From assembly GCA_046714175.1 (NCBI GenBank), contig JBKKBI010000062.1, forward strand, positions 5,344-69,343: a stretch of DNA of 64,000 nucleotides, read 5' to 3'. The notes under the pieces were generated by a model, which saw nothing but the letters and a program-made list of their open reading frames with translations, made no database searches and was not told the DNA's origin. The stretch comes from Acidimicrobiia bacterium. Its GTDB lineage: Bacteria > Actinomycetota > Acidimicrobiia > Spongiisociales > UBA11373. This document shows, one piece after another, positions 5,568-42,778 of the stretch (positions are counted from its first letter, which is position 1; the number at the start of each line of letters is the position of its first letter). Made by a program: the position numbers and the translations under genes.

Positions 5568-6752
5568 TCAGCCAAGTGTCACCACGAACGACTCCTGGAC
5601 ATCGTTGCCGTCGATCTCGTCGAGCGCGGTGAGGTCGGCGGGGGAGAGGGCGCCCGACTGGTCGAAGTCCACCCAGAGCCGGAGCCACAGGCGGGCGCCG
5701 CTGCTCACCCCGGCCGGGAGGGGCACTGCGAGGTCGTTGACCGTCCCGGCGGCGACGGCAACCACTGCGAGGCGGGTGCCGGGGGCACCGGAGGAGTTGC
5801 GCAGGATCTCGATGAATCCGGCGGCCGGGGCGACGAGGGAGTCGATGACGAACTCACCCCCGCTCTCGACCACCTGATCGGCGACGACGAGTGCTGCCGG
5901 AGCACGCCGGATCACGGTGATCTCTGCGGAACCGACGGCAAGCAATCCCCCTTCGGTGACTGCCATCTGATCGCCCTCTGGGCCGGGAGTGAACGCGCCG
6001 TCCTCGTTCCGGTCCACCCAGGCCACCACCATGAAGGTGCCGGCGGCGACCAGCGGTGTGTCCAGGCTCAGCGTGAACTCGCCGATCACTCCGGACGGGA
6101 AGAGCTCGCTGACGCCCAGCACCGCTCCCGGTCCTTCGGCAGCGCTCTCGTGCACCACCAGGAACCCGGGTGCCGGGAGCAGGCCGCCGGCGAGCACGAG
6201 CGTGGTGCCATCGGTCACCTGCGGATCCAGAAGCGCCGAGCCAGGGCTGAGCGGTGGTAGCAGGGTGATGGTGACGATGGCCGTCGCCGGAGTGCCGTCG
6301 GCGCCTGTGGCGACGGCGTCCACAAACGCGTCGGGAGGCTCGTAGAGGAACTCGGTATCGGAGTCCACGTCGATGTGCACGGTGAGATGCAGGGTCGTGG
6401 TTGAGGAGATCGGGACCAGGAACGGCACGGGGACGTCGGCAGTGAAGCCCTTGGCGATCAACTCGCTGATACCGATCACCTCACCGGGCGAGCCGCCGCT
6501 GTCCAGGCGGGCCACCACCCACCCGGCGTCGGGCATCGCCAGCGACTCCACCACTACCGACGATCCCTCCGACCGCTGATCGCCGGCCACGATGCTTGCC
6601 GGGCTGGTGGCCACGGGTTCGTCGCCCGAGAGCGGGAGCGTCGTAGTCGTCGTGCCCGACGACTCGTAGCTGCAGGAGCCGGCGACGACAACCGCAACGA
6701 AAACCCAGGAGAAGCGACGAGTCATTCGGCGCGGGAGGGTAATAGGAGTCAT
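5568..6752 (-). CDS. Secreted protein with three internally repeated domains (hypothetical)
   Basis: N-terminal hydrophobic segment MTPITLPRRMTRRFSWVFVAVVVAGSC. Three similar roughly 100-aa repeats (VVVESLAMPDAGWVVARL / FLVVHESAAEGPGAVLGV / FVIDSLVAPAAGFIEILR). The start codon is embedded in a gagtcat repeat. Confidence 0.5.
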   Translation of the reverse strand: MTPITLPRRMTRRFSWVFVAVVVAGSCSYESSGTTTTTLPLSGDEPVATSPASIVAGDQRSEGSSVVVESLAMPDAGWVVARLDSGGSPGEVIGISELIAKGFTADVPVPFLVPISSTTTLHLTVHIDVDSDTEFLYEPPDAFVDAVATGADGTPATAIVTITLLPPLSPGSALLDPQVTDGTTLVLAGGLLPAPGFLVVHESAAEGPGAVLGVSELFPSGVIGEFTLSLDTPLVAAGTFMVVAWVDRNEDGAFTPGPEGDQMAVTEGGLLAVGSAEITVIRRAPAALVVADQVVESGGEFVIDSLVAPAAGFIEILRNSSGAPGTRLAVVAVAAGTVNDLAVPLPAGVSSGARLWLRLWVDFDQSGALSPADLTALDEIDGNDVQESFVVTLG

Positions 6753-11193: not shown

Positions 11194-12174
11194 ATGGCTC
11201 GGGTTCGTCTCTTCGCCAACCTGCGGGAGCTTGCCGGCACGGCTTCGGTCGAGATCGACGGCGCGACTGTGGCCGAGATTCTCAGCGCCGCCACCGATCG
11301 TTATGGCGCCGACTTCGCCCGGGCACTGCAAACCGCCCAGGTGTGGGTCGATGGGGAACGGGTCACCCGCGAGGCCCCCGTCCCGCATGGGTCCGAGTTG
11401 GCGGTGATCCCTCCCGTCTCCGGCGGGTCGCTGGTGGTTCAGTCCCCGATCGGCCTCGAGATCGCGCTGGTGCTCGCGACCTTCGGGATCCTGTTCCTGG
11501 GCAACGCCCTTTCGCTGGAGTGGTTCACGGTGCTGGTCGTGCTGGTCGCATCCGTGTGGGTGTTGGACATCACCGGGTCCACCGACCGTCGCGGCCTTCC
11601 TCTGGCCAATGCGGTGATCATGCTCACTGTGGGCGCTGGCGCGCTCGCCACCTACCGCTTCGGTGTGGTTGGGATGGCGGCCACCGCCGGTACCGCCGTG
11701 GTCGGAGTACTGGTGGCATCGGTGTTCCGTTCCCTGCTCCGCCCAATCGACTCATTCGCGGCCGGGGCCGTTCTGGCGATCGTCACCGCCATCGGCACCT
11801 CTGCGATGGTTCTCTTGCGCCTGCGGTCGCGCGACGAGACCATGGTGTTCCTCTTCGTGCTCAGCGTGGCGGTGGTGGTCTCCTGGTTTTCGGATCGCGC
11901 CGAGATGCCCATCATCGACCCGCTGGTCGCCCTGCTGGTGGGGGCGGTGCTTGCCGGGGCAGTCGGTGGGGCGTTGTGGGCTCCCGACCTTCTCAGCGCC
12001 ATCGGAGCCGCGGTGGCCGCAGCGATTGCGCTGGTGTCAGGCCGCAACCTCGGCACCCTGCTCCGCGCTGGAGGCTTCTTCACCCAGGGCACCATTCCGG
12101 GGAGCCTCGCCTACTTTGATGGTGCCTTGCTCGCCGCCGCCGCCTTCTGGTCGATCCTGACGGTGCTCAGTTAG
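11194..12174 (+). CDS. MoaD/ThiS-like beta-grasp domain (ends ...IPPVSGG) fused in frame to a polytopic membrane domain
   Basis: MARVRLFANLRELAGTASVEIDGATVAEILSAATDRYGADFARALQTAQVWVDGERVTREAPVPHGSELAVIPPVSGG is followed directly by about 250 aa of hydrophobic helices. Confidence 0.55.
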   Translation: MARVRLFANLRELAGTASVEIDGATVAEILSAATDRYGADFARALQTAQVWVDGERVTREAPVPHGSELAVIPPVSGGSLVVQSPIGLEIALVLATFGILFLGNALSLEWFTVLVVLVASVWVLDITGSTDRRGLPLANAVIMLTVGAGALATYRFGVVGMAATAGTAVVGVLVASVFRSLLRPIDSFAAGAVLAIVTAIGTSAMVLLRLRSRDETMVFLFVLSVAVVVSWFSDRAEMPIIDPLVALLVGAVLAGAVGGALWAPDLLSAIGAAVAAAIALVSGRNLGTLLRAGGFFTQGTIPGSLAYFDGALLAAAAFWSILTVLS

Positions 12175-12257: not shown

Positions 12258-12276
12258 CTGACGGCGCTGCCGTCAG
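12258..12276. terminator. Hairpin CTGACGGC-gct-GCCGTCAG at the convergent gene ends
   Basis: Perfect 8-bp inverted repeat overlapping the aminotransferase stop codon. Confidence 0.3.
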
Positions 12277-13352
12277 AGCAGCCCGCGGAGCGCCACGATC
12301 AAGCCCTCGTTCTCCTGGGGCGACCCGGCGGTGATGCGCACCCAGCCCAGGGGCGGAACCGGGCGCACTATGTATCCCTTTTCCAGGAGGCCGTGCACCA
12401 TCGCGGCGGCGGCATCCCCAAATCGGGTGTAGACAAAGTTGGTCTGGGTGTCGATGACGGTGAGGCCGAGGTCGCGCAGCGTAGCGGTGAGGTGGGTCAC
12501 GGCGAGGGTGTTGCGGCGCACCCGTTCGGAAACCCGATCCTGATGTCGCAACGCCTCGACGGCGGCCACCTCGCCGAGAGTATTGACCGTGAAGGGCAGC
12601 TGCAGGCGGCGGAAGTTGGCGATCGACTCCTGCGCTGTGACCGCGTATCCGATCCGAAGCCCAGCGAGTCCGTAGGCCTTGGAGAAGGTACGGGTGACCA
12701 TCACGTTGTCGCGTGTGGCGGCGAGCGGAAGCATGGTGCGAAAGTCGGGTGCGGTGGCGAACTCGGCGTATGCCTCATCGATCACCACCAGGATGTCCTC
12801 GCGGAGGGAGTCCACGAAGTCTTCTAAGTCATCACCGGGGACGTGAGTGCCAGTGGGATTGTTCGGGTTGCACACGAACACCACGCTCGTGTCGGGTCGC
12901 ACCGCCTGGCGCATCGCGCCCAGGTCATGGCGATGGCGGCCGTCGAGTGGCACGGCGATGTCCGTGCCGAAGCCGGTGCGGGTGGCGATCTGATACAGGG
13001 AGAACGAGGGCCAGCTGTAGACCGCGCTGCTGGCGGGGTGGGTGACCGCGAGCGCGGCCACAAGGGTCAATTCGTTGCTCGCCCCTCCGCACCAGACGCG
13101 GTCGGTCGGCACCCCATAGAACTCCGACAGCGCCCGGGTGAGATCAGGTCGGCTGTTGTCCGGATAGCGATTGAGCCCGGCGGCCGCGGCGGCGATCGCC
13201 GCCTGTACCTCGGGAGCGGGAGGCTCCGGGCTCTCATTCGAGGCGAGCTTCACCACTTGTTGCAGCCGAAAGGTGGCGAGCACCTCGGCAATGGCGCGTC
13301 CCGGCCGATATGCCTCGATCCGGTCGATGTCAGGACGGAAGCGGATGGGCAT
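12273..13352 (-). CDS. Class II aminotransferase (histidinol-phosphate / aromatic aminotransferase family)
   Basis: KLASNESP, CNPNNPTG, TFSKAYGLAGLRIGY (the PLP-binding lysine motif). Confidence 0.8.
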   Translation of the reverse strand: MPIRFRPDIDRIEAYRPGRAIAEVLATFRLQQVVKLASNESPEPPAPEVQAAIAAAAAGLNRYPDNSRPDLTRALSEFYGVPTDRVWCGGASNELTLVAALAVTHPASSAVYSWPSFSLYQIATRTGFGTDIAVPLDGRHRHDLGAMRQAVRPDTSVVFVCNPNNPTGTHVPGDDLEDFVDSLREDILVVIDEAYAEFATAPDFRTMLPLAATRDNVMVTRTFSKAYGLAGLRIGYAVTAQESIANFRRLQLPFTVNTLGEVAAVEALRHQDRVSERVRRNTLAVTHLTATLRDLGLTVIDTQTNFVYTRFGDAAAAMVHGLLEKGYIVRPVPPLGWVRITAGSPQENEGLIVALRGLL

Positions 13353-13528: not shown

Positions 13529-14704
13529 ATGATGACCACCAGACATACGATGCTCCTCGTGAGCTCGTGGCGACGACGCGCTGTGGCGCTCGTCCTCATC
13601 ACTGTCGCCGCCCTCGCCCAGAGTGGTGGAATCCCGGCCTACTCGGTGGATGAGGAGGACGTCGAGCAGGCGCGTCAGGAGCGCGAACAGGCTGCCCGGG
13701 AGCGGGCCGCCGCCCTCGCGGACCTCGACTCCGCCGTCGCCGCCTATGAGGCGCTCAATGCCGAACTCCAGGAGCTGACGTTTCGTGTCGGCCGTCTCCG
13801 GTCCCAAATCGACCTCTACGAGTCGCAAAGCCGCGATCTGCGCGACGAGATTCGCACCCAAGCCGTTGACTCCTACATGCATGGTGACGAGCGCGATGGT
13901 CTTAGTGCAGTCTTCAATCCGGAGGTGGTGCAGCAGTCGATCATCGCCCGGGAGGTGCTGGCTCTGGCGATCGATAGTGACTCGGCCTCCCTGGACTCAC
14001 TCCTGGCGGTCACGGCGGAGATGGACCGTCTTCAGGAGTCCTTGCGCACCGACAGCGCTCGGGTCGAGGAACTCCGGGTCGAGGCCGATGCCGTCGTCGC
14101 CCGGATGGACGAGCTGTTCGCGCAAGCCGACGCAGAGTTCAACCAGGCCCAGTCGGAGTTCGTTGCTGCCTCCGCGGCGCTTGCCGAGCAGCGGCGCCGG
14201 GAGGAGGAGGAGCGCCAGCGTCGCGAAGCCGAGCAGCGGGTGCGGGACCTGATCCGGGCGTCCCTGGGTGCGCCCTCCCTGGGGGTGCCGATGTCGATCA
14301 CTCCCGGCGTCATCTGTCCGGTCGCCGCTCCGACCTTTTTCATCAATTCGTGGGGGTTTCCTCGTTCCGGTGGGCGCGTCCACCTCGGTACCGACATGTT
14401 CGCCGCATACCGCGCACCCCTGGTCGCCGTGGGCGATGGGGTGGTCCGGTTGTCCACCTCGAGTCTCGGCGGCATCGTCGTCCACTTGTGGGCCGACCAC
14501 GGAGTCGATTACTTCTATGCGCATCTCGATGCCTACGCCCCCGGTCTCACCAGTGGGCAGCGGGTCACCAGGGGCCAGTTGCTCGGCTACAACGGCGACA
14601 CTGGGAATGCCGCTTCCGGGGCCTATCACTTGCACTTCGGAATGCGTCCGGGTAACACCATCAACGTGAACCCGTATCCGACGGTGCGGGCGGTCTGCCC
14701 GTGA
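13529..14704 (+). CDS. Secreted M23-family peptidase with an N-terminal coiled-coil region
   Basis: Signal peptide, a long coiled-coil, and C-terminal HLGTDMFAAYRAPLVAVGDGVV ... GYNGDTGNAASGAYHLHFG (LytM/M23 motifs). Confidence 0.8.
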   Translation: MMTTRHTMLLVSSWRRRAVALVLITVAALAQSGGIPAYSVDEEDVEQARQEREQAARERAAALADLDSAVAAYEALNAELQELTFRVGRLRSQIDLYESQSRDLRDEIRTQAVDSYMHGDERDGLSAVFNPEVVQQSIIAREVLALAIDSDSASLDSLLAVTAEMDRLQESLRTDSARVEELRVEADAVVARMDELFAQADAEFNQAQSEFVAASAALAEQRRREEEERQRREAEQRVRDLIRASLGAPSLGVPMSITPGVICPVAAPTFFINSWGFPRSGGRVHLGTDMFAAYRAPLVAVGDGVVRLSTSSLGGIVVHLWADHGVDYFYAHLDAYAPGLTSGQRVTRGQLLGYNGDTGNAASGAYHLHFGMRPGNTINVNPYPTVRAVCP

Positions 14705-14734
14705 CCCGTCCGGCCATCCTCTACCCTTGATCCC

Positions 14735-15280
14735 GTGACCGAGACCAAGCGCCGCCGCATCGACCAGATCCAGGATCCTGAGTTCCTGCGCAACCTGGCC
14801 ACGATCACCCAGGACGAACTCCGGGACCGTCGCAGTATGTGCGACGACCTCGACCTGGAGTTCTCCTATTACCGCAGGCTGCTTCACGGCCGCATGGATC
14901 TGTTGGCGTTCGAGATGCGGCGCCGCGCCGGCGAGGAAGAGCAGACCCTCCTCGAGGCGCTTCCGAAGATCCTGGCGGCCGGGGCCTACAACTCCGATCC
15001 CGGACTGCCGAGCAGGAACATTCCGATCGAGGCTCCCGATGTGCCCTCCCCGGGTCGTCGCCTCATCGACCGGGCCCTGCAGGGCGACTTCCTGGCTCGC
15101 CTCGGCGACCTGACCGATGACGACCTCCGGGAGACGCATCGCTTCCTGGAGCAGATGGAGGTCGAGGTCTCGATGCAGCGTCGTGTGGTCCACACCGTCC
15201 TCGATCGATTGCAGGCGGAGGTGACCCGGCGGTACCGGGATGGTTTGGCCGATCCCGGTGAGCTGCTGGCCCGCGGGTGA
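14735..15280 (+). CDS. Hypothetical helical protein; possible RsiG-like c-di-GMP-binding anti-sigma factor
   Basis: Two helices carry DxxxSxxRxxxHxxxD (DLEFSYYRRLLHGRMD) and ExxxSxxRxxxHxxxD (EVEVSMQRRVVHTVLD). These resemble the RsiG E(x)3S(x)2R(x)3Q(x)3D repeats. GTG start. Confidence 0.35.
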   Translation: MTETKRRRIDQIQDPEFLRNLATITQDELRDRRSMCDDLDLEFSYYRRLLHGRMDLLAFEMRRRAGEEEQTLLEALPKILAAGAYNSDPGLPSRNIPIEAPDVPSPGRRLIDRALQGDFLARLGDLTDDDLRETHRFLEQMEVEVSMQRRVVHTVLDRLQAEVTRRYRDGLADPGELLARG

Positions 15281-16215
15281 TCGTCGGTTCGATCCGTAGC
15301 GGTCTGGTCGAGACCGTGCATCCCGTCGCCGTGGCCGTCGTCGATCCGGATGGAGCGGTCTTGGTCACTTCTGGTGACGCCTCGGATCGGGACTTCTTTC
15401 TCCGCTCCGCAATCAAGCCCCTTCAGGCCGCGGTATCGCAACGGCTGGGAGCGGCACTGGGCCTGGAACAACTCGCGGTGGCGGCATCGAGCCATGAGGG
15501 TCAGCCGGCGCACATCGCCATCGTCGAGCAGATGCTGCTCGAGGTCGGCCTGGAAGCGGGGAACCTGCGCTGCCCACCCGATTGGCCGGGCGACGCGGAC
15601 TCCGAGCGGCGATGGGTGGCGATGGGCCGGGACCACCAGGAGGCGGTGTTTCACAACTGCTCAGGCAAGCACGCTGCCATGCTCCGAGCCTGCGCGGCCC
15701 GGGGCTGGTCCCTCGAGTATCTCGCCGCCGACCATCCGCTGCAGAAGGAGGTGCTGGTCGCAGTGGAGGCTGCGACTGGCCGGACGGTGGGACCGACCGG
15801 AGTGGACGGATGTGGTGCGCCGACGCTGCGCAGCGATGTCGTCGGACTCGCCCGGGGATTCGCCGCCATCGCCGCGGACCCGGACCTGGCCGAGGTGCGC
15901 TCGGCAGCGATGCGCTTTGCCTCGCTGACCCGGGATGGCGATCGCCCCGAGACCGAGATCGCCCGCTGGCTCCCCACTGTCGTCAAGGGTGGGGCGGCGG
16001 GATGCATCGGGATCGCCTGGCCGGAAGGCGGCCTCGGTATCGCTGCCAAGTGCTGGACGGGTGACGGGGCCGCCGCGGTGGTCGGCGCCATCACGGTGAT
16101 GACCGAGTTGGGAATCGTTCCGGATCATCCGCGGGCTCAGCTGGAGGCGGTGGCGCATCCCCCGGTTCTGGGGGGCGGCAAGCCGGTCGGGCATCTTGCG
16201 GTGATCGAACGATGA
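15277..16215 (+). CDS. Asparaginase_II-family (PF06089-like) protein
   Basis: RSGLVETVHPVAVAVVDPDG...FFLRSAIKPLQAA; start overlaps the upstream stop (GTGA). Confidence 0.55.
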   Translation: MIVGSIRSGLVETVHPVAVAVVDPDGAVLVTSGDASDRDFFLRSAIKPLQAAVSQRLGAALGLEQLAVAASSHEGQPAHIAIVEQMLLEVGLEAGNLRCPPDWPGDADSERRWVAMGRDHQEAVFHNCSGKHAAMLRACAARGWSLEYLAADHPLQKEVLVAVEAATGRTVGPTGVDGCGAPTLRSDVVGLARGFAAIAADPDLAEVRSAAMRFASLTRDGDRPETEIARWLPTVVKGGAAGCIGIAWPEGGLGIAAKCWTGDGAAAVVGAITVMTELGIVPDHPRAQLEAVAHPPVLGGGKPVGHLAVIER

Positions 16216-17099
16216 ACCCTTGGGCCGATTGGTCGGGGCTGCAGGCCCTGGCCGGCGGCACCGGACCGTTCCCGTACCGCGGATTCCTGGAGTCTTGGTG
16301 GCGTCACCGGGGCCGAGGCGAGTTACTCACTCTCCGCGCCGGCGACGGGGCGGTGGGGCTGGTGGTCGATGCGGGTGTGGTCCGGTTCGTCGGGGAGGCG
16401 GACCTCACCGACTACCACTCTCCTCTCGGTGACGACCTGGAGCCGGTGGTGGCGGCGCTGGTCTCTGCCCTGGCCGCGGGCACCGTCCTGGCGCTGGACT
16501 CGCTGCCCATGGAAGCGGCCGAGCCTTTGATGAAACAATTCGCCGCCGCCGGCGTTGCTATGTCGATGAGTTCCCACGACGCCACGATGGTGCTGGACCT
16601 CCCCCGTGACCCCAACGCATATCTGGCGCTTCTCGACGCCAAACAGCGCCACGAACTGCGCCGCAAGCGTCGTCGCTTCGAGGAGCAAGCCGGGATCCCG
16701 AGCCTGGTCAGATATGACAACGCCCTGGAGGGTTTTGCTGCCATGCACCGCACCGCCACCGGAGAAAAGGGCGAGTTCATGACGCCCGACATGGAATCGT
16801 TCTTCGGCTCGCTGGTCACCGACGCCGGTGGGGTCATCGACCTGTTGCTCGATGGGTCGGGCAATCCGGCGGCGGCGGCATTCGGTTTCGAGGACGCCGA
16901 CACCTACTACCTGTACAACTCTGCGTTCGCGGCGGAACGAGCGCCGCTGTCGCCTGGGATCGTGCTCGTGGCGGAGTTGATCGCGGCGACCATCCGCTCC
17001 GGTCGGCGGCGTTTCGACTTCCTCAAAGGCGGAGAGGACTACAAGGTCCGCCTCGGAGCCCGACCCAGGCCGCTGTATCGGCTGGAGGGGGCGTTGTGA
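16212..17099 (+). CDS. GNAT/FemAB-like acyltransferase (Acetyltransf_6 / CelD-like)
   Basis: C-terminal ...YYLYNSAFAAERAPLSPGIVLVAELIAATIRSGRRRFDFLKGGEDYK matches BioF2/FemAB-like GNATs. 4-bp overlaps with both neighbours. Confidence 0.55.
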   Translation: MNPWADWSGLQALAGGTGPFPYRGFLESWWRHRGRGELLTLRAGDGAVGLVVDAGVVRFVGEADLTDYHSPLGDDLEPVVAALVSALAAGTVLALDSLPMEAAEPLMKQFAAAGVAMSMSSHDATMVLDLPRDPNAYLALLDAKQRHELRRKRRRFEEQAGIPSLVRYDNALEGFAAMHRTATGEKGEFMTPDMESFFGSLVTDAGGVIDLLLDGSGNPAAAAFGFEDADTYYLYNSAFAAERAPLSPGIVLVAELIAATIRSGRRRFDFLKGGEDYKVRLGARPRPLYRLEGAL

Positions 17100-18280
17100 T
17101 CTCCCGGGTGGCGTTTCTCAGCATCCATTCCTCGCCGCTCGACGCCCCCGGCGTCGGGGACGCCGGAGGCATGAACGTGTACATCGATGCCCTGGCCCGC
17201 ACCCTGGCAGGACGCGACATTCAGGTGGACGTGTTCACTCGTCGGGCCTCCGACGCGATCCCCGCCGAAGTCGAGGTGGTGCCCGGCTACTGCGTGATTC
17301 ATATCGATGCGGCCGGCAGCGACACCGCCGACATGGTGGGGGCCTTCTCCGAAGGCGTCGCCAAATGGTTGGCGGCGCGCCAGGCGACTCCCGATCTGGT
17401 CCACAGTCATTACTGGCTGTCGGGTTGGGCGGGGGCGCATCTGCAGCAGGTTCTTGGAGTGCCTTTGGCGATCTCGTTCCACACGCTGGGGCGGGTGAAG
17501 GAGGCGACGCGGGCACCAGGTGAGCCCCGGGAGTCACTGGTGCGCATTGCGGCCGAAACCGAGGTGGTGGCTCGCGCCGGGTGCATGATCGCTTCTACCC
17601 CGGCCGAGGCTGCCGACCTGATCGAGCACTACCAGGCGAACCCGGAGCGCATCTGCGTCTCGCCTCCCGGGGTGGATCACAGCGTCTTTCGACCCGGCGA
17701 CAAGGACCGGGCGCGACGGCGCCTGGGTCTGGATCCCGGTCCGCTGGTGGCCATCGTCGGGAGGATCCAGCCCCTCAAGGGGATCGATGTAGCTATCGCC
17801 GCCGTTGCCGCTCTGCCCGGGGTACGACTCCTCGTGGTCGGTGGTCCGAGTGGGCCCATGGGTGAGTCCGAATTGGTGCGCCTCCACGCTCTCGCCGAAC
17901 AGACCGCTCCGGGGAGGGTGACTTTCATGCCGCCCCGCCCCCACGGCGATATCGCCTGCGTGTATCGCGCGGCCGACGCAGTCATCGTTCCCAGCCGGTC
18001 GGAGTCGTTCGGGTTGGTGGCCGTCGAGGCTCAGGCGTGTGGCATCCCGGTGGTGGCGTCGCGAGTCGGAGGGTTGGCGTACTCGGTCGAGGACGACCGC
18101 ACCGGGTATCTGGTCGCTGGCCACGATCCCGCCGACTACGCCCGGGCGCTCGCTGCGATCCTCGATGATGCCGACAACGCCGCCCGATTGTCCGCCGGCG
18201 CCATCGCCCACGCCGCCGGATTCTCGTGGGACGCGACCGCGGATCGACTGGTGGAGTTGTACCGCGGGTTGCTCGAGTAG
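17096..18280 (+). CDS. mshA: D-inositol-3-phosphate glycosyltransferase (mycothiol biosynthesis)
   Basis: SIHSSPLDAPGVGDAGGMNVYI is the hallmark MshA motif. GT4 C-terminal domain EAQACGIPVVASRVGGL. Confidence 0.85.
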   Translation: MISRVAFLSIHSSPLDAPGVGDAGGMNVYIDALARTLAGRDIQVDVFTRRASDAIPAEVEVVPGYCVIHIDAAGSDTADMVGAFSEGVAKWLAARQATPDLVHSHYWLSGWAGAHLQQVLGVPLAISFHTLGRVKEATRAPGEPRESLVRIAAETEVVARAGCMIASTPAEAADLIEHYQANPERICVSPPGVDHSVFRPGDKDRARRRLGLDPGPLVAIVGRIQPLKGIDVAIAAVAALPGVRLLVVGGPSGPMGESELVRLHALAEQTAPGRVTFMPPRPHGDIACVYRAADAVIVPSRSESFGLVAVEAQACGIPVVASRVGGLAYSVEDDRTGYLVAGHDPADYARALAAILDDADNAARLSAGAIAHAAGFSWDATADRLVELYRGLLE

Positions 18281-18671: not shown

Positions 18672-19556
18672 TCACAGGCCGAACATCACCTCGCCGAGGC
18701 GCACCCGGTGGACTTCGAAAGTTTCGAGATCGAGGCGCAGCGACCCGAGGCGCAGCCCCCGCATCCCGTCACCCTGGTTGGTGACCACGCGCAACGCTCC
18801 GTCATCGTGTTCCAGGACTCCCAGGCCCAGGCAGGCGCCGGTGCCATCCTGCAGGCCGACCAGGACCCCGTGCAAACGGGCTAGGTCGAGACCCTCGGGC
18901 AGGGTCGGGGCGAACACCGTGCTGCGCACCCTCCACCGCTGCAGTGGTTCGGCGAAGGCTTCAGCAAAAGCCTTGGCGCGATGCGCCCGCCGCACCTCTG
19001 GATCCATGGGCCGTACCTCGGGATCCACGACAGCGGTTTCGACGTCGACCGTGAAGAAGCGCCGCAGCATGCCCACCAGCGGCTCCAGTTCGGCGCCGCG
19101 CTGCAGGCCGATGACGACATCGGGCCGGCACAGCTCCATTTTGTGGTACTTGAGTGTTTGTCCTCCCACACCGGAGATCGACCCGGTGGTGTCGATCACC
19201 ACGAGATCGGCGGCATCGCGGGCGACATCGACCAGGGCAGCGGTACCTACCACCTGTTGCAGCACGACGCCTTCGGGAGTGATGTCTCCGACGAAGTGAA
19301 GCGCATCCGCGACACCGAGTTCGCTGAGGTCGCGCTGCTCGCGCACCATCTTCAGCCCGACACAGGTCGGTGGTCCCACCGTGGTCTGATCGACATCTGC
19401 ATCCACGTAGGCACCGGTCTTCCCGGCCGCCACGACCGCAGCGAGGAGGTCGCGCGCCAGTGTCGACTTTCCGGTATCGGGCCCGCCCACCAGCATGACG
19501 ACGCCACGGCGCCTGGCGAGATCGTCGAGCAGCGCTCCGTGATGGCCGTCGGACAT
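18672..19556 (-). CDS. Clp1-like P-loop (polynucleotide-kinase-type NTPase domain) protein
   Basis: MLVGGPDTGKSTLARDL (Walker A) ... DLVVIDTTGSISG. Start chosen at MSDGHHGALLDDLARRRG. Confidence 0.5.
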   Translation of the reverse strand: MSDGHHGALLDDLARRRGVVMLVGGPDTGKSTLARDLLAAVVAAGKTGAYVDADVDQTTVGPPTCVGLKMVREQRDLSELGVADALHFVGDITPEGVVLQQVVGTAALVDVARDAADLVVIDTTGSISGVGGQTLKYHKMELCRPDVVIGLQRGAELEPLVGMLRRFFTVDVETAVVDPEVRPMDPEVRRAHRAKAFAEAFAEPLQRWRVRSTVFAPTLPEGLDLARLHGVLVGLQDGTGACLGLGVLEHDDGALRVVTNQGDGMRGLRLGSLRLDLETFEVHRVRLGEVMFGL

Positions 19557-19627
19557 CTCTTCCTCGGGGTGGGCGGCACATCGTAACGGCGGGTTGTCCG
19601 AAGACGGACCGGTATCCTCGCCGGGCA

Positions 19628-20434
19628 ATGCCTCCGCTCCCGATCTCGTTTCTCAGTGACTTCGGCACCGCCGACGAGTTCGTCGGGGTCGTCCATGGTG
19701 TCATCGAGCGCATCGCCCCCGGCACCCGAGTGATCGATGTCACCCATGGCATCAGCCGCGGCGATGTCCGCGCCGGCGCCCTCGCGCTCTTGCGAGCCGT
19801 GCAGTACCTCCCGCCGGGAGTGGTCCTGGCAGTGGTGGATCCCGGAGTGGGCACGGGGAGGCGGGCGATCGCGGCCTCCACCGGGCGCGGCTTCTTCGTC
19901 GGGCCTGACAACGGCTTGCTGGCTCCGGCGGTGGCGATGAGTGGTGGCGCCGAGCGACTGGTGGCTCTGGAGTCCGAGGCATTCCGCCTCCCCGGCGCAG
20001 GTTCCACGTTCGACGGTCGCGACCTATTTGCCCCGGCGGCGGCGGTTCTGGCTTCGGGGGAGGCCGGTCTCGATGACCTCGGCCCGGAGATCGATCCGGC
20101 CTCGGTCGTGCCACTGCTGCTGCCCCTGATCGAGTCGGGGGGCGGCGTGGTGTCGGGGGAGGTGTGGTGGATCGATGCTTACGGGAACGCCCAGACCAAC
20201 GTGGCCCCGGCCGACCTCGAGGCCGTCGGTATTCGGGCAGGGTCGACACTTCTGGTGCGAATCGGCGGGGTGGAGCACGAGATGATATGGGCCACCGGCT
20301 ACGGGGAGGGGAGCGATCCCGTCGTTCACTGCGACTCCCACGGGCTGATGGCGATCGCCCTACCCCGCGGTCGGGCGGACGAGTCCCTGCACATCAGGGA
20401 GGGACTCTCGGTCGGCTTCAGGTCACCGAATTGA
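19628..20434 (+). CDS. SAM hydroxide adenosyltransferase (DUF62, fluorinase/chlorinase-like SAM hydrolase family)
   Basis: ISFLSDFGTADEFVGVVHGVI...VVDPGVGTGRRAIA...DAYGNAQTN matches the family. Confidence 0.7.
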   Translation: MPPLPISFLSDFGTADEFVGVVHGVIERIAPGTRVIDVTHGISRGDVRAGALALLRAVQYLPPGVVLAVVDPGVGTGRRAIAASTGRGFFVGPDNGLLAPAVAMSGGAERLVALESEAFRLPGAGSTFDGRDLFAPAAAVLASGEAGLDDLGPEIDPASVVPLLLPLIESGGGVVSGEVWWIDAYGNAQTNVAPADLEAVGIRAGSTLLVRIGGVEHEMIWATGYGEGSDPVVHCDSHGLMAIALPRGRADESLHIREGLSVGFRSPN

Positions 20435-20531: not shown

Positions 20532-20762
20532 ATGAGCGACCTGGTGTTCCTCACGCGCCGCACCTGCTCTCTGTGCGCCGAGGCGTTGCCCCTGGTGGCT
20601 GCAACGGCGCGGCGGCGCGACCACACACTCGAGACCATTGATGTCGATGACGCTGGACTTGCGGATCGTTTTGGCGATCGCGTGCCTGTGGTCTTGCGCG
20701 ATGGCATCGAGGTGCTGGCGGGGCGCTTCGGCGCCCGCGCGGTGCGCCGCGCCCTGCGCTGA
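20532..20762 (+). CDS. Glutaredoxin-like small thiol-disulfide protein (CxxC)
   Basis: MSDLVFLTRRTCSLCAEALPLV ... 76 aa, DUF836/glutaredoxin-2-like. Confidence 0.55.
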   Translation: MSDLVFLTRRTCSLCAEALPLVAATARRRDHTLETIDVDDAGLADRFGDRVPVVLRDGIEVLAGRFGARAVRRALR

Positions 20763-20796
20763 TTTCGGCCGCGACACCCCCGCCTATATTGCCGCG

Positions 20797-21420
20797 ATGG
20801 TCAGACGGCCCGTTCCCCGGGTCACCGTGCAGCGACTTCCCGTGTACCTCCGGTGCTTGGAGACTCTGCCAGCAGGCCAGCAGCGGGTCTCCTCGGATGA
20901 AGTGGCGGAGCTCGCTGGAGTCCTCGGCGCCAAGATCCGCAAGGACCTGTCCTACCTGGGCACCCACGGAACCCGCGGCGTCGGCTATGACGTGGAGCAT
21001 CTCAAGCACCAGATCCGTCTCGAACTCGGGCTGACCCGGGATTGGGCGGTGGTGATCGTCGGCATCGGCAACCTGGGCCGAGCCCTCGCCAACTACGGCG
21101 GGTTCGGCGAGCGCCGCTTCCAGGTGGTGGGTCTGTTCGATGTCGACCCCGACAAGGTGGGAACCCCGGTCGACGGCCACATGGTGGAGCCGATGACCGT
21201 GCTCGCCTCGGCGGTGGCGGAGCGCAACGCCTCCATCGGGATCATTGCCACCCCGGCCCACGCCGCCCAGGAAGTGGCCGACGCGCTGGCGGCCGCCGGG
21301 GTGCGCTCCATCCTCAACTTCGCTCCGGCCGTGCTCAAAGCCCCAGCCGGGGTCGAGGTACGCCGCGTCGACCTATCGACGGAGCTGCAGGTGCTCACGT
21401 TCTATCTCGCCCGGAGCTGA
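20797..21420 (+). CDS. rex: Redox-sensing transcriptional repressor Rex
   Basis: VQRLPVYLRCL...SSDEVAELAGV..KIRKDLSYLG..GTRGVGYDV; Rossmann VVIVGIGNLGRAL. ATG chosen at 20797 within the longer track ORF. Confidence 0.8.
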   Translation: MVRRPVPRVTVQRLPVYLRCLETLPAGQQRVSSDEVAELAGVLGAKIRKDLSYLGTHGTRGVGYDVEHLKHQIRLELGLTRDWAVVIVGIGNLGRALANYGGFGERRFQVVGLFDVDPDKVGTPVDGHMVEPMTVLASAVAERNASIGIIATPAHAAQEVADALAAAGVRSILNFAPAVLKAPAGVEVRRVDLSTELQVLTFYLARS

Positions 21421-21446: not shown

Positions 21447-21938
21447 CTATTCCTGCTCCGCCTCATACCTGCTCAATCCCGTCACGAACATGGCGAACAG
21501 GATCAGCGATGCCAGCATCAGGGCTCCGGGGAGGATGCGGATCTGGAACGCGTTCAGGCCGACGAGCAATTGCGGGCGAATGCCGCGAGGGGCGTACACC
21601 GTGTAGAGCAGGCCGACGATGGCGAGAAACCCGAAGAAGGCGGCCCCGGTGGTGAGAAAGGCGAGACGCCGTCCCAGGTTGGTGTAGTTGATCAGGTAGA
21701 CGCTTCCCCAAAAGACTGCGATCGCGCCGATGGCGACGATCAAGCCCCGCACCAGCACACCAGGGGCGGGGGTTCCGTCGGCGGCCACCTGGTTCTTCCC
21801 GACCATGCTCTCATACAGCGAATCGAGTCCGGCGCGGAACTGCGGGATCATCGAGAGCAGGATGAGGACGGTCAGTGCGACGCCGATCCACTCCAGGGTG
21901 GACAGGCCCGACTCTTCCTTGCGCACTCGCCGAATCAT
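21447..21938 (-). CDS. Membrane protein (4 TM), last gene of the cytochrome bc-type operon
   Basis: Hydrophobic 163 aa with a 4-bp overlap with the upstream cytochrome c gene. Confidence 0.4.
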   Translation of the reverse strand: MIRRVRKEESGLSTLEWIGVALTVLILLSMIPQFRAGLDSLYESMVGKNQVAADGTPAPGVLVRGLIVAIGAIAVFWGSVYLINYTNLGRRLAFLTTGAAFFGFLAIVGLLYTVYAPRGIRPQLLVGLNAFQIRILPGALMLASLILFAMFVTGLSRYEAEQE

Positions 21939-23434
21939 CCCATCGCCCTCTCGTACTGAATGATGAGCCTGATGTCCGCTTCGCTGAGCATGGCACCGAA
22001 TCCCGGCATCCAGCCGCGCCCGATACCGTTGACCCCGTACTGAGCCCCGTTGGCCGATCCAGCGACCACGAAGTCGTAGTGGTCCTCGATGTCGGGGAAC
22101 TGCACCACCGCACGGCCCTGGCGGAGCGATGGACCCATAGCTCCCGACCCTGCCTCCTGGGTGAAGACGATGCCAGCCGAATAGCCGGCCGTGTGGCAGC
22201 GGGCGCAGTACGCGTTGTATAGGCCCACCGCCCGCTCCGCGGCGGCGACATCGCCTGCGAAGGCCTCCTCCGCCAGCATCGGCAGGTCCACCGCGTATCG
22301 GCGCAATTCCTCTGCGGCGACGACAGCCGCCAGCCCGCTCTCAGCGGCGGTGAGCAGCCGATCGAGGTTTTCGGTGGTGAGCCGCAGGTCTCGCACACTG
22401 GTGCCGAGGTCTGTGAGCAGCACCTGGGCACTGTCGAGGTCGGCGATCGGGGTGGCGCCATTGGAGGTGCTGAACGCCAGCGCCGGATCAAACTCCAGCT
22501 TCTCGATCCTGGCGCGGGCGTCGGAGGGTGGTGCGTCGGCGATGATCTGGGCCACGAGGCTGTCAAGGCCTGCCTCGGCGGTGTCGGACAGGCCGTCACG
22601 GTCGCCATCGGCGGCGGCGCCGTCGCAGGACTCGCCGAACAGCGCCGCCGAGCGCTCGGTGCATGTGTCCGCGTCGGTGAGCAAGTCGTTGAGCCGTTGC
22701 GGTAGTTCGCGCACCGCGTCGTATTGCCCCGGGGCGGCTTCCAGCGCCGCGATCGCCGCTCGCTGGGCCGCCACCGCGGCTGTCACCGCGGCGTCGGCCC
22801 CTTCCAGCCGGGTGAGTTCGCGGGCGACTCTTCCATCGACTGCGGCGATCACTTCGGATTGCGGGATCTGGATGCTCTCTAGATACGCCAGCAGCTCATC
22901 GATCTGTTGGGTGTTGAGCGGCCCGCCGCCCTCGGCTCCCCAGGCGGGCATCGGAGTGCCCGCCCGGCCGTACACCAGCCAATACCGAACCTCGTCGGCG
23001 GTGTACCGATAGAACACGTCATTGATGGCTGGTGCCGCCCAGGTGGTTTCGATACCGGACCGGGCCTCGATGAAACTGGCACCGCCGCCGCCGGCGTCGC
23101 TTCCATGGCAGTTGCCGCATTGGTACTCGACGAACCACTCATGGCCCCGTTCCACGGCGACGTCCTCGTAGTACTCGGTGGCGTCGGCCTGGCGGGTGGT
23201 CTCATTGAGGTAGTAGATCGGCATCACCACGGCGATCACGGCCACGGTCACCAGCGCGGAGAGCAACACGCGGTCGAGCCGCTTCAACTCAAGATCGTCG
23301 TCGGTGAGATACGGAGTCAGATTGGGCGGCGGGGTGTCGGAGCGGTGGCGGACCCGAGTGTTGCGAACGAGAAAGGCGAGCCAGCCGATGACCGCCACGG
23401 CGACGATGAGGAGCGTGGCGGCGCCGAGGCCCAT
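21935..23434 (-). CDS. Membrane-anchored diheme c-type cytochrome (two CxxCH domains separated by a roughly 250-aa linker)
   Basis: N-terminal TM helix. CGNCHG in domain 1 and CARCHTAG in domain 2. The linker is Ala-rich and helical with DGDRDGLSD. Confidence 0.75.
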   Translation of the reverse strand: MGLGAATLLIVAVAVIGWLAFLVRNTRVRHRSDTPPPNLTPYLTDDDLELKRLDRVLLSALVTVAVIAVVMPIYYLNETTRQADATEYYEDVAVERGHEWFVEYQCGNCHGSDAGGGGASFIEARSGIETTWAAPAINDVFYRYTADEVRYWLVYGRAGTPMPAWGAEGGGPLNTQQIDELLAYLESIQIPQSEVIAAVDGRVARELTRLEGADAAVTAAVAAQRAAIAALEAAPGQYDAVRELPQRLNDLLTDADTCTERSAALFGESCDGAAADGDRDGLSDTAEAGLDSLVAQIIADAPPSDARARIEKLEFDPALAFSTSNGATPIADLDSAQVLLTDLGTSVRDLRLTTENLDRLLTAAESGLAAVVAAEELRRYAVDLPMLAEEAFAGDVAAAERAVGLYNAYCARCHTAGYSAGIVFTQEAGSGAMGPSLRQGRAVVQFPDIEDHYDFVVAGSANGAQYGVNGIGRGWMPGFGAMLSEADIRLIIQYERAMG

Positions 23435-23462
23435 CAGCGGATCCCCAACTCGACTGCAGACA

Positions 23463-24281
23463 TCAGATGCACGAGGGCCCCTGCGGGTAGGTGGCCGTCT
23501 TGTGTGAGGCCCGCGAGGTCTGTATCACCTGACCGGTATCGATGATCAGCACTCCGGCATCGTCCACTTCGACGACGAAACGGTCGAGATTCCGGGGTGC
23601 CGGGCCGCCTTCGTACTCCCCGTGGTAGTTGTATTTGGAGGAGTGGCAGGGACACTCGAACCCTTGCGAGGTATCGCATTGCGGCACGCGGCAGCCGAGG
23701 TGGACGCAACGTTGCCACAGCGCCATGAGGCCACCGGCCACCACGGGGAGTCCCTCAAAGCTACTGCCGGCCATTTCCCCCTGGAACGGCACGAGGTAGG
23801 CCTGAGCCGCGGGGACGAACAGCGGGCTGACCCGGCCATCGGCGAGGAAGACCTGTGTGGCGAGATCCTCGGCCTTTCCTGCGGCAACCTTGGAGCCGAA
23901 TCCCCCCGCTTTGATGCGGGGCCACATGAAGCCGAGGGTGAAGATGCCCATCTGGGCCATGAACAGCCCGAAGATCCCGGCCACGCCGCGATTGAAAAAC
24001 TGGCGCCGGGTGACTCCGTACGCCTCCGGGCCGACCTCCTCGCGCTGGGTGAGGGGATCGATCGGCGGGGTTTCGTCGAGTTCGACCGGCACCACGGTCT
24101 TCGCGGCGGAGGCTGCGTCAGCGCGGCGGCGGCGCTTGTCGCGACGCAGGGCCTTGCGGTCGGCGGACCCGGTGATCGGTCCGGTGTCGGAGTTACGCCG
24201 CAACGCCACGCTGGCCACGGCGAGCGCGCCGAGCAGGCCGACGGCGGCAAAGGCGAGGATGGCGATCTGGGTCGTGCTCAT
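23463..24281 (-). CDS. qcrA: Rieske [2Fe-2S] iron-sulfur subunit
   Basis: CVHLGCRVP ... CPCHSSKY Rieske boxes. TM anchor MSTTQIAILAFAAVGLLGAL. ATGA overlap with the upstream gene. Confidence 0.85.
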   Translation of the reverse strand: MSTTQIAILAFAAVGLLGALAVASVALRRNSDTGPITGSADRKALRRDKRRRRADAASAAKTVVPVELDETPPIDPLTQREEVGPEAYGVTRRQFFNRGVAGIFGLFMAQMGIFTLGFMWPRIKAGGFGSKVAAGKAEDLATQVFLADGRVSPLFVPAAQAYLVPFQGEMAGSSFEGLPVVAGGLMALWQRCVHLGCRVPQCDTSQGFECPCHSSKYNYHGEYEGGPAPRNLDRFVVEVDDAGVLIIDTGQVIQTSRASHKTATYPQGPSCI

Positions 24282-24970
24282 AGGTCGAAGAAGATCCCGT
24301 CGCGCCAGGGGAAGATGAAGTTGAGGCCGCGTCCCCGGTAGAACGAACCGATCATGGTGAGGATCGCCGCCGCCACCACGAAGAACGTGAACATCATGAT
24401 GGCGAACTTGCGGTCGGACGGCCGGGTGGAGCGGTTGCGGTCGATGTAGGGGATGATCGCCAGGCCGGCGAGCCCCAGTCCGGGGATGAGCACGCCGGCG
24501 ATCTGTGGGTCGAAATACACCAGCAACTCCTGCAGCCCGAGGAAGTACCACGGAGCCTTCGAGGGATTGGGCTGGGCGTTGGGGTTGGCCAACTCGAGCA
24601 GCGGCGCATCCTGGAAGATCGAGAACACGATCAGCAGCGCGGTCACGACCAGCAGGGCGACGAACTCCATGGCCAGGAGGTGAGGCCACACGTTGACCTT
24701 GTCGGTGGGCTCCTTCTTCACCTGCTGGATCGCGTTGGCCTTCACCACGGTGAGCAGGCGCTGCGTGCGCACTCCTTCGGGGATGGCGGGCGCGGCGGGG
24801 GCGCTGCGGGCCGGGGCGGTGGCGGTGGCGGTGGCGGCTACGGCCGGTGCCGCACCGGGCAATGCGGCCCCGCCGGTCATCTCGGCCCACACCTGTTCGA
24901 ACGGCACACCGGTGGCCTTGGCCTTGGCCTCGGCCGAGCGGCGGAGTAGATGTTCGGGAACGGTTGCCAT
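24278..24970 (-). CDS. Cytochrome b C-terminal portion as a separate subunit (b6f subunit-IV-like) with a roughly 100-aa N-terminal extension
   Basis: NPSKAPWYFLGLQELLVYF is the PEWY-region equivalent. Three TM helices. N-terminal RSAEAKAKATGVPFEQVWAEMTGG module. Confidence 0.7.
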   Translation of the reverse strand: MATVPEHLLRRSAEAKAKATGVPFEQVWAEMTGGAALPGAAPAVAATATATAPARSAPAAPAIPEGVRTQRLLTVVKANAIQQVKKEPTDKVNVWPHLLAMEFVALLVVTALLIVFSIFQDAPLLELANPNAQPNPSKAPWYFLGLQELLVYFDPQIAGVLIPGLGLAGLAIIPYIDRNRSTRPSDRKFAIMMFTFFVVAAAILTMIGSFYRGRGLNFIFPWRDGIFFDL

Positions 24971-24982
24971 GTCTCGTATCTC

Positions 24983-25768
24983 CTACAGCGGTCCCGAGAT
25001 GCCGCCGTCCTTGCGCACCCGCCAAAAGTGCACCGCCATGAAAATGACGATCAGGAAGGGCAGGGCGAGGACGTGCAGGACGTAGAAGCGGAGCAGTGTC
25101 GGCGCCCCCACCTGGAGCCCTCCGAGCAAGACGAACGAGACCTGGTCGCCGAACACCGGCGTATAGCCACCCATGTTGGTGCCCACCGTCACCGCCCAGA
25201 TGGCCAGCTGGTCCCAGGGGAGCAGGTATCCGGTGAAGGACAGCAGCAGGGTGAGGAACAAGAGCACCACTCCCACCACCCAGTTGAATTCGCGCGGCGG
25301 CTTGTAGGCCCCGTGATAGAAGACCCGGGTCATGTGCAGAAACACCGTGATCACCATCAGGTGAGCGCCCCAGCGGTGCAGGTTGCGCACGATCTGGCCA
25401 AAGGCGACATCGGTGGAGAGCGCCTGGATGTCCGGGTAGGCCTGCGTGGCGGACGGCGTGTAATAGAACATCAAAAAGATGCCGGTGATGGTCAGCAGAA
25501 TGAACAAGAAGAAAGACAACCCGCCCAGACACAGGGTGTAGGACAGGCGAACCGCGTGCCGCTTCACCTTCACGGGGTGAAGGTGATAGAGCACGTTGTT
25601 CATGATCACGTAAGAGCGGTTGCGGGGGCTGTCGGCGTACCCCTTACGCATCGGTGAACCGGGGCGGAACATCGACTCCCAGGCCTCCGAGCCGCGGATA
25701 CGGGTGCCTACCCCGGCGATGCGCTCGCCGAGTCTGGTGCGTCCGTTGCCGTTTCCGTTGCTCGCCAC
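24983..25768 (-). CDS. qcrB: Cytochrome b N-terminal (b6-like) subunit
   Basis: [25 protein letters not shown] and [27 protein letters not shown] show a heme-b bis-His four-helix pattern. Ends after helix D. Confidence 0.8.
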
Positions 25769-25826
25769 TTCGCCTCCGTTGCGTCCTCAGTCTCCGCCGC
25801 CACCCGTCATTCGGTCAAATCACCAG

Positions 25827-26276
25827 TTACCAGCGCACCCCATAGGCGTAACCATTGCGATCATCGCGCTGCCCGCTGTCTACATCCCACGGGGAGTCGC
25901 CGCCCTTGGCTGCGGCGGTCGCCGCCAGGGAACCGTCGTACTTCCCCAAAGCGATCACCCCGGTCGGGCACCGATCCACGCAGAGCGCGCACCGGGTGCA
26001 CTCGTCCTCGTCGACTACGAAAAAGCCCCGATTGGCGGTGTCCTCGCGGGGGTCGGCGACATTGGTGGCCTCGGCGATGGCATCCATGGACAGATAGTGG
26101 ATGCACTTCCACGGGCAGATGTCGACGCAGCCCTCACACAGGATGCACTCCGACTGGTCGATGTGGAGGTACTGCTTGGGCTTCACGGCTGCAGCGAGAT
26201 ACGAGCCGTCGACCATCGCCAACTGATAGTCCTCCCGGAAGGGGGGAGTCTCGAGCCAGGCTTCGGTGGGGGCCAT
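25827..26276 (-). CDS. 2x[4Fe-4S] ferredoxin with a C-terminal extension
   Basis: CILCEGCVDICP and CTRCALCVDRCP. Confidence 0.75.
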   Translation of the reverse strand: MAPTEAWLETPPFREDYQLAMVDGSYLAAAVKPKQYLHIDQSECILCEGCVDICPWKCIHYLSMDAIAEATNVADPREDTANRGFFVVDEDECTRCALCVDRCPTGVIALGKYDGSLAATAAAKGGDSPWDVDSGQRDDRNGYAYGVRW

Positions 26277-26993: not shown

Positions 26994-27100
26994 CGATGGC
27001 TCCTCCCGGGTATCGATCGCCGGCTCGTCCTCGCCGCGCGACACGACCCCGTAGCCGAACCTCTAACCTCCGACCGGTTCGCGCACGAAGGGATCGGGGA

Positions 27101-37677: not shown

Positions 37678-37982
37678 GGGTGCTCCCGTCGAGGATCTGC
37701 CGAGTATCGCACCGGCCCACGGCTAGCGGGGAGAGGGTGGCGGCCCTGTTAGACCATCAGATCCTGGACATAGGCGGGTTCGGCAAGGGCCTGGAAGTGT
37801 CGGGGTTGGGCCGTCAGTCATCAGCCAGAAACGGATGCACCTCCCGGGTGGCGGGGCAGATCCTCGCACGGCTGTCGGGAGCGGACTCTGGCTGAAAGCT
37901 GGTGGCTGACTGCTGTCGGCTTCCCGTGACTTTCCCCCTGTCGGGCGGCTCTAATCTCCAGGGTCCGCGATCCCACGGAGCC

Positions 37983-38396
37983 ATGTCTCTCAGCGACTAC
38001 CTCCCCATCGCCCTCATGTTCGGGATCGCTGTGGGCTTCGCCCTGGTGTCGCTGTTCCTGTCCCGGCTGATCGCCCCCAACAACCCGACTCCGGAGAAGT
38101 TGGAGCCGTATGAGTGCGGGATCGTCCCGCTGCAGGAGCCGGTGCAGCGGTTCCCGGTGAAGTTCTACATGGTGGCCATGCTCTTCGTTCTCTTCGACAT
38201 CGAGATCGTCTTCCTCTTCGCCTGGGCGGTGCGCTTTCACCAGTTGGGCTGGTACGGGATGGCGGCGGTGGGAGTGTTCACCTTCCTCCTCATCGAGACC
38301 CTGGTGTATGTGTGGAAGCGCGGCGCCCTGGATTGGAACGTGGCGCACCGGCGCAGGCGTGTGGTCGCGGACCAGGAATTGCAGAAGGCAGCCTGA
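37983..38396 (+). CDS. nuoA: NADH-quinone oxidoreductase subunit A
   Basis: [12 protein letters not shown]...[12 protein letters not shown]. Internal ATG chosen over the track start; the upstream codons are not coding-like. Confidence 0.85.
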
Positions 38397-40784: not shown

Positions 40785-40786
40785 GC

Positions 40787-40832
40787 CCACTACCCGCTAC
40801 CCGCTACCCGGTACCCGTTGCCCGTCGCCCGC
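40787..40832. repeat. Tandem heptamer array (ctacccg-type) in the nuoD-nuoE junction
   Basis: ccactacccgctacccgctacccggtacccgttgcccgtcgcccgc. Confidence 0.6.
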
Positions 40833-40886
40833 AGAGCGCGGCGCCTATCGCCCACCGCCGATCGCTTCTCTGCAAAGGATCCCGCC

Positions 40887-41495: not shown

Positions 41496-42770
<1,275 letters not shown>

Positions 42771-42778
<8 letters not shown>

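Follow-up and report, generated by a model that had tools for sequence, protein, structure and literature searches.

The protein encoded at positions 14735–15280 (+ strand) of the window, which is the whole 64,000-nucleotide (64-kb) stretch of Acidimicrobiia DNA that was analyzed, is almost certainly a member of the RsiG family. It was predicted to adopt the RsiG fold, an antiparallel coiled coil of two helices (residues 26–64 and 128–168), each carrying one complete c-di-GMP-binding motif. By analogy with characterized relatives, the full mechanism is likely that of a monomeric, twin-motif anti-sigma factor, which is armed by c-di-GMP and sequesters a sigma-28 factor of the WhiG2 clade.

On the + strand, the rsiG-like gene starts with GTG at 14735, closes with a TGA that ends at 15280, and has a product of 181 amino acids. 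Its assignment to the twin-motif RsiG family was based on the open reading frame (ORF), the coding GC pattern, Pfam PF22802, the PDB chain 6pfj_T, and Foldseek matches. The GC content by codon position (0.74/0.42/0.84) fits a coding frame in a window of 66.7% GC. More than 100 homologues of 180–181 residues span 98–100% of the protein, in support of the assigned start codon and length. The codon boundaries, the coding GC, and the homologue lengths are all in line with the 181-residue ORF delineated in an earlier, sequence-only reading of this DNA. Long antisense ORFs overlapping rsiG have third-codon positions that coincide with those of the rsiG frame and were rejected as shadow ORFs.

The Pfam model PF22802 (RsiG-like) matched the protein in two stretches with E = 1.8e-22 and 79.3 bits, relative to a gathering cutoff of 27, and it was present in all of the best 120 homologues. 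No NCBIfam model matched the protein. A phmmer search against the PDB aligned residues 21–179 with residues 22–176 of 6pfj_T (E = 1.6e-10), having the motifs in register. [quoted passage not shown] The two proteins have a Pfam family in common and are ~32% identical along almost the entire length, and the match reaches well beyond the short motif. The window RsiG lacks the long N-terminal extension of RsiGSv, resulting in a length of 181 residues as compared to ~199–215.

The AlphaFold2 model, calculated with 26 homologues, had moderate confidence (pLDDT 73.5, pTM 0.65) and consisted of helices only, as the sequence-only reading had anticipated. Predicted helix α1 (residues 26–64; 14810–14926, + strand), assigned by DSSP on the model with pLDDT values of 83–88 and aligned to α1 of RsiGSv, would form the first strand of the antiparallel coiled coil. 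Predicted helix α5 (residues 128–168; 15116–15238, + strand; DSSP, pLDDT 81–92) would provide the second strand. The linker loop at residues 84–109 (14984–15061, + strand) was modeled with low confidence (pLDDT < 50). The predicted order of elements is also shared with RsiGSv: an N-terminal tail, α1 bearing motif 1, a linker made up of short helices and a loop, α5 bearing motif 2, and a helix at the C-terminus. The RsiG fold is unique in the PDB. When the model was searched against the PDB with Foldseek, significant matches were confined to four RsiG chains (6pfv_T, 6pfv_B, 6pfv_E, and 6pfj_T), with E values from 2e-5 to 9e-5, a probability of 1.00, TM scores of 0.58–0.70, and 31–32% identity; the next match had E > 2. 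Together, the PF22802 match, the 6pfj_T alignment, and the RsiG-only fold matches uphold the RsiG-like identity at the family level. Signatures of other anti-sigma factors were not detected in the protein. It contains no HxxxCxxC motif and has no Pfam match to the zinc-binding anti-sigma factors (ZAS, RsrA-like), and no FlgM Pfam match was obtained at E ≤ 0.1.

Motif 1 is DLEFSYYRRLLHGRMD (residues 40–55; 14852–14899, + strand) and reads D40-x3-S44-x2-R47-x3-H51-x3-D55. Motif 2 is EVEVSMQRRVVHTVLD (residues 142–157; 15158–15205, + strand) and reads E142-x3-S146-x2-R149-x3-H153-x3-D157. Both were located by a regular expression and are in register with RsiGSv residues E64/S68/R71/Q75/D79 and E162/S166/R169/Q173/D177, respectively. 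The sequence-only reading had described two copies of [DE]x3Sx2Rx3Hx3D, one per helix, resembling the paired motifs of Streptomyces RsiG; the modeled helices and the in-register alignment agree with both points. All ten c-di-GMP-contacting motif positions of RsiGSv are retained. The two motif helices are 31% identical to each other (16/51 in an in-register alignment), which is expected because RsiG carries a known internal duplication (PMC8325347). The window RsiG differs from RsiGSv in beginning motif 1 with Asp instead of Glu, a feature likewise found in 8 of 84 family members, and in having His instead of Gln at both stacking positions.

The replacement of Gln by His is a published variant. 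The motif-1 Gln of RsiG is often His, which is sterically suited and can stack on guanine in the same way (PMC8325347). In the 114 close two-motif homologues, the stacking residue of motif 1 was always His, and that of motif 2 was His (91), Tyr (21), or Phe (2). The 120 Streptomyces RsiGs contained Gln at both positions without exception. For 111 two-motif representatives of the 50%-identity clusters, we found Gln (74), His (36), and Leu (1) in motif 1, and His (64), Gln (23), Phe (12), and Leu (12) in motif 2. His is thus an ordinary stacking residue, being the commonest one in motif 2 among diverse family representatives. The interpretation of His as a stand-in for Gln, made from the sequence at the outset, is therefore in accordance with the literature and with the frequency of His in the diverse set.

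The steps of the proposed mechanism follow by homology from the S. venezuelae and Rubrobacter complexes. In the antiparallel coiled coil, the paired motifs would clamp a c-di-GMP dimer, with the Ser and Asp/Glu residues contacting the ribose moieties. The central guanines would be read by Arg47 and Arg149, and the flipped-out guanines by Asp55 and Asp157. His51 and His153 would stack on the flipped-out guanines, taking over the role of Gln. The disordered loop at residues 84–109, including Arg94, would then fold over the nucleotide. Armed in this manner, RsiG would bind domains σ2 and σ4 of a sigma-28 factor from the WhiG2 clade, whose gene would lie elsewhere in the genome, and would keep this factor off RNA polymerase, and a drop in c-di-GMP would release the sigma factor. 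Unlike in S. venezuelae, the regulon is unlikely to concern sporulation, given that the organism is most likely unicellular.

Two further systems help to place this mechanism. Rubrobacter radiotolerans RsiG (PDB 7LQ2–7LQ4) is the single-motif, homodimeric ancestral form, which controls type IV pili. It was matched by phmmer with E ~3e-3 (7lq2/3/4) over helix α1 and motif 1. The c-di-GMP-dimer principle is presumably common to the two proteins, but the Rubrobacter protein, having one motif, must dimerize, whereas the window RsiG holds both motifs in one chain. FlgM, the classical anti-sigma-28 factor, presumably has the same target class, the FliA/WhiG-type sigma-28 factors. However, its fold and sequence are unrelated to those of the window RsiG, and it is nucleotide-independent.

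The residues facing WhiG were mapped through an alignment in which the window protein was combined with S. venezuelae RsiG and 83 family members, with the contact lists and numbering taken from PMC7005675. Identical or conservatively replaced residues were found at 11 of the 14 WhiG-contact positions, and most of these are invariant or nearly so across the Acidimicrobiia clade. For the σ2 contacts, the kept or conservative pairs (RsiGSv>window) were Y69>Y45, I80>L56, V95>L72, L99>L76, and L143>L123, while V138>D118 and D142>R122 were altered. For the σ4 contacts, R54>R30, R57>R33, I183>V163, Y187>Y167, L197>L177, and L198>L178 were kept or conservative, and R58>S34 was altered. The loop arginine is retained as well: Arg94 is the equivalent of RsiGSv Arg115, which stacks on c-di-GMP, and it is invariant in the clade alignment. 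In RsiGSv, this loop folds only when c-di-GMP and WhiG are bound (PMC7005675).

Pfam annotation of the ~55 window genes revealed no WhiG/FliA-type sigma factor and no GGDEF, EAL, or HD-GYP domain in the 64-kb window. In 80 related loci, the 10 kb on either side of rsiG contained no sigma-70-family gene. A tblastn search with S. venezuelae WhiG (residues 47–274, taken from the PDB alignment) and E. coli FliA yielded no match at E < 1e-3 in the window or in 80–82 loci. The lack of a sigma gene near rsiG is uninformative, because ~1.5 Mb separates rsiG from whiG in S. venezuelae (PMC7005675). RsiG-bearing genomes have been reported to always carry a WhiG homologue (PMC12871210), and the published co-occurrence of RsiG and WhiG takes in the Acidimicrobiales (PMC8325347, PMC12871210). 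The main text of a 2026 preprint, consulted for WhiG lists, makes no mention of Acidimicrobiia. A scan of the window for WhiG-type promoters (consensus T[A/C]AA-N16-GCCGA, spacer allowed to vary as N15-17) gave three loose matches as compared to 1.6 expected from shuffled sequences, and none of them had a fuller –10 element.

In the window, rsiG is embedded in a string of genes on the + strand. It is preceded by a gene for a secreted M23 peptidase with a coiled-coil N-terminal region (13529–14704; Pfam Peptidase_M23, E = 6.5e-16), which ends 30 nt before rsiG. Downstream are an asparaginase_II-family gene (15277–16215; PF06089, E = 2e-78), the GTG start of which overlaps the rsiG stop by 4 nt, a GNAT gene (Acetyltransf_6/FemAB-like; 16212–17099; PF13480, E = 2e-24), and an mshA-like GT4 glycosyltransferase gene (17096–18280; TIGR03449 mycothiol_MshA, E = 4e-124). 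Consecutive genes from rsiG to the mshA-like gene, four in all, overlap by 4 nt (start/stop) at 15277, 16212, and 17096. The mshA-like product scored 414.5 bits on TIGR03449, which is under the equivalog cutoff of 462.5.

The same arrangement was seen in the 80 related loci, ~71–76 of which reach far enough downstream to include the asparaginase_II-like, GNAT, and mshA-like genes. The M23 peptidase gene lies immediately upstream of rsiG on the same strand in 78/80 loci. The asparaginase_II-like gene was found in 77/80 at a constant offset from rsiG, and the GNAT and mshA-like genes in 66/80 each, on the same strand as rsiG; the offsets of the cluster genes were nearly constant throughout. No such cluster surrounds rsiG in S. 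venezuelae, where it sits between genes for a D-Tyr-tRNA deacylase and an Eis-like acetyltransferase, with no M23 peptidase, asparaginase_II, or mshA gene nearby. The difference between the neighborhoods indicates that the cluster is specific to Acidimicrobiia.

The gene is probably co-transcribed with the translationally coupled asparaginase_II-like, GNAT, and mshA-like genes. The sequence-only reading had placed it at the head of an mshA operon. This holds insofar as rsiG is the first of four overlapping genes ending in the mshA-like gene, but the co-directional M23 peptidase gene is only 30 nt upstream and is kept there in 78 of the 80 loci. The head position is thus plausible, although unproven, and transcripts may also read through from the M23 gene. 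A –10-like hexamer, TACCCT (14722–14727, + strand), is located 7 nt upstream of the rsiG GTG and may belong to a leaderless promoter. In 11 of 12 related loci with ≥59% identity (the exception being L003), TAnnnT starts at –12 to –14 of the start codon. It is kept though the flanks and the distance to the M23 stop (25–252 nt) vary, as might be expected if rsiG had a leaderless promoter in this sub-clade. Loci more distant than this set contain a GGAG-type ribosome-binding site in place of the hexamer. Within the 11–19 kb region of the window, a scan for sigma-70 consensus promoters found none, and terminator-like sites did not exceed the shuffle expectation. A leaderless promoter immediately before rsiG, read-through from the M23 peptidase gene, or the two together may account for its transcription.

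The conserved neighborhood could also be taken to suggest a different partner. According to this alternative, the protein is a true RsiG-fold c-di-GMP receptor that was re-purposed in Acidimicrobiia, and it binds a cluster product (e.g., the M23 peptidase or the mshA-like glycosyltransferase) or some other protein instead of WhiG. We consider this unlikely. A co-directional cluster that is kept in 66–78 of the 80 Acidimicrobiia-type loci, has 4-nt overlaps in the window, and is missing around S. venezuelae rsiG would suit such a change, but a housekeeping gene order conserved within one class need not mean physical interaction. The lack of a sigma gene within 10 kb of rsiG in the 80 loci points the same way as the cluster, yet rsiG is unlinked to whiG in Streptomyces too. 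Two of the σ2-contact positions are altered, one of them (D142 to R122) with a charge reversal; against this stand the 11 of 14 WhiG-contact positions that are retained and conserved in the clade, and the published co-occurrence with WhiG that includes Acidimicrobiales. A broader proposal is that the RsiG switch is hard-wired into an envelope/low-molecular-weight-thiol cluster in Acidimicrobiia. Here, expression of the anti-sigma factor would be coupled to envelope or mycothiol homeostasis, or the protein would have a second, non-sigma partner or input, Cys36 being one candidate input. This proposal appears similarly improbable to us.

Cys36 is the basis of a more conjectural alternative, namely a thiol- or redox-responsive RsiG, in which S-mycothiolation or oxidation of this residue would act as an input besides c-di-GMP. 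The residue lies in helix α1, is present in 117/117 close homologues, and is the sole Cys in 114 of them. Across the wider family, however, the same column contains Cys (44), Ala (28), Thr (5), Val (5), and Ser (2), a pattern expected of a small residue packed in the core, not of a sensor. The mycothiol connection comes from the mshA-like gene, three genes downstream in the same overlapping string, but its score is under the MshA equivalog cutoff, and the protein has neither a second Cys nor an HxxxCxxC zinc motif. A thiol-responsive RsiG is therefore very improbable. The last alternative is a coiled coil of unrelated function, its pair of short motifs being a product of chance or of charged, low-complexity helices. 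In its favor, the protein is all-helical with a high content of Arg, Glu, Asp, and Leu, a composition prone to repeated short charged patterns. This alternative is refuted, however, by the Pfam score 52 bits over the gathering cutoff, the full-length alignment and fold match to RsiG only, the invariance of the motif residues in >100 homologues, and the motif search itself, which, even with Q, H, Y, or F tolerated at the variable position, gave two matches in the 127,996 six-frame residues of the window, both inside the rsiG ORF.

Returning to the c-di-GMP-armed anti-sigma factor, we examined its distribution. Identical protein sequences came from just one NCBI contig (77.7 kb) and two Logan contigs of ~2 kb. 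A genome scan with one genome per species gave at least 255 confirmed relatives, and the genome of the window itself is not one of the representatives scanned. The best 80 of these are nearly all Acidimicrobiia, Actinomycetota, or plain 'bacterium' metagenome-assembled genomes, with identities of at most 77%, and the few other taxon labels among them are probably binning errors. The RsiG family, which comprises 758 clusters at 50% identity (E ≤ 1e-3), is restricted to Actinobacteria/Actinomycetota, in agreement with the labels of nearly all 80 loci. Schumacher et al. (2021) reported twin-motif RsiG in three of four Acidimicrobiales (Acidithrix, Ferrithrix, and Ilumatobacter), and the window RsiG therefore belongs to an already known type. 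Acidithrix ferrooxidans AXFE_25810, Ferrithrix thermotolerans, and Ilumatobacter coccineus YM304_37910 have the class and the twin-motif form in common with it. The proteins of these cultured organisms are the published precedent for RsiG in this lineage and were catalogued rather than characterized. In contrast, the window RsiG comes from an uncultured lineage, and its closest relative among the matches listed is 77% identical.

The literature already describes the RsiG family with its fold, motifs, and His variant, as well as its occurrence in Acidimicrobiales, and the present analysis reveals no further mechanism. Its only additions are a gene cluster strictly specific to Acidimicrobiia, a possible leaderless promoter, and the His/Tyr/Phe spectrum at the motif-2 stacking position. 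Compared with the three cultured Acidimicrobiales of the published survey, RsiG is widespread in uncultured Acidimicrobiia-type genomes, as the count of relatives indicates. A c-di-GMP-controlled sigma-28 switch is thereby suggested for an environmental class that is abundant and mostly uncultured. The analysis also confirms that motif-spotting in the raw sequence had correctly identified a second-messenger receptor.

The gene content of the window is otherwise housekeeping. Enzymes encoded there include a class II ribonucleotide reductase, an amidase, an aminotransferase, and a SAM hydroxide adenosyltransferase, and genes for tyrosine catabolism are present as well. A ThiS-fused membrane protein, a Clp1-like P-loop protein, a bactofilin-like protein, Rex, and an ABC transporter were also observed, together with cytochrome clusters and two nuo clusters.

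[quoted passage not shown] The cluster consists of the genes for a coiled-coil M23 peptidase, RsiG, an asparaginase_II-like protein, an Acetyltransf_6 GNAT protein and an mshA-like GT4 glycosyltransferase. Inspection of the best 80 of at least 255 related loci, from Acidimicrobiia-type MAGs, showed that the constant spacing of these five genes was kept in 66-78 of them. In contrast, the surroundings of S. venezuelae rsiG lack the M23–rsiG–asparaginase_II-like–GNAT–mshA-like arrangement. We found no report in the searchable literature of a linkage between rsiG and the M23, asparaginase_II-like, GNAT or mshA-like genes.

The flanks of the cluster were compared across the same best 80 of at least 255 relatives. 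According to the domain annotation, the product of the gene at 11194-12174 (+) joins a ThiS domain and a polytopic membrane region in one chain, and such a fusion gene precedes the M23 gene in 59/80 loci. On the other side, a gene for a Clp1-like P-loop protein of the polynucleotide kinase type (18672-19628, −) is convergent with the mshA-like gene; 59 of the 80 loci likewise carry it downstream of the cluster. Between the ThiS-fusion and M23 genes, the window carries a class I/II aminotransferase gene (12273-13352, −). Because this gene was found in only 14 of the 80 loci, its presence suggests a local insertion or rearrangement.

Upstream of the rsiG start, we located a TAnnnT −10-like hexamer (14722-14727). 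In the nearest relatives (L004-L013 and L018 of the related loci), this hexamer begins 12-14 nt 5′ of the start codon; among remoter relatives, a GGAG Shine-Dalgarno sequence stands in its place. This position suggests that the rsiG transcript may be leaderless.

The sole cysteine of the RsiG-like protein, Cys36 (codon at 14840-14842), is invariant in the close homologues (117/117). In the wider family, the same column is occupied by C, A, T, V or S. Judged from these alignments, Cys36 is probably a core-packing residue; a role as a thiol switch is unlikely.

The Streptomyces RsiG homologues retrieved by the protein search (P0124-P0242) are still called 'ABC transporter substrate-binding protein' in many NCBI records, and 'aerial mycelium formation protein' in a few. 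UniRef lists the identical proteins as 'RsiG family protein'. The NCBI naming is a propagated misannotation.

Domain annotation of the window also revealed two NADH:quinone oxidoreductase gene sets (37902-52936 and 59641-63383). A full nuoA-N-like cluster makes up one of them; the other set, extending toward the window end, is partial, with 20-kDa, 30-kDa, 49-kDa and NuoH-like subunits. A 666-aa single chain (26996-28996, +) combines a COX1-like domain (haem-copper oxidase subunit I) with a C-terminal FixO domain (cbb3 mono-haem subunit); a gene for a cytochrome c comes next. In the cluster at 21935-26276 (−), genes for a multi-haem cytochrome c and a 4Fe-4S ferredoxin-like protein accompany a cytochrome b that is split into separately encoded N- and C-terminal parts; this cluster adjoins the gene of the redox-sensing repressor Rex (20638-21420). 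Directly 3′ of the nuo cluster, a 369-aa protein (53142-54251, +) matched a bactofilin domain weakly (E = 1.4e-6, around the Pfam cutoff). Elsewhere, 5568-6752 (−) encodes a protein in which three DUF7282 repeats occur together with a match to the GEVED domain.
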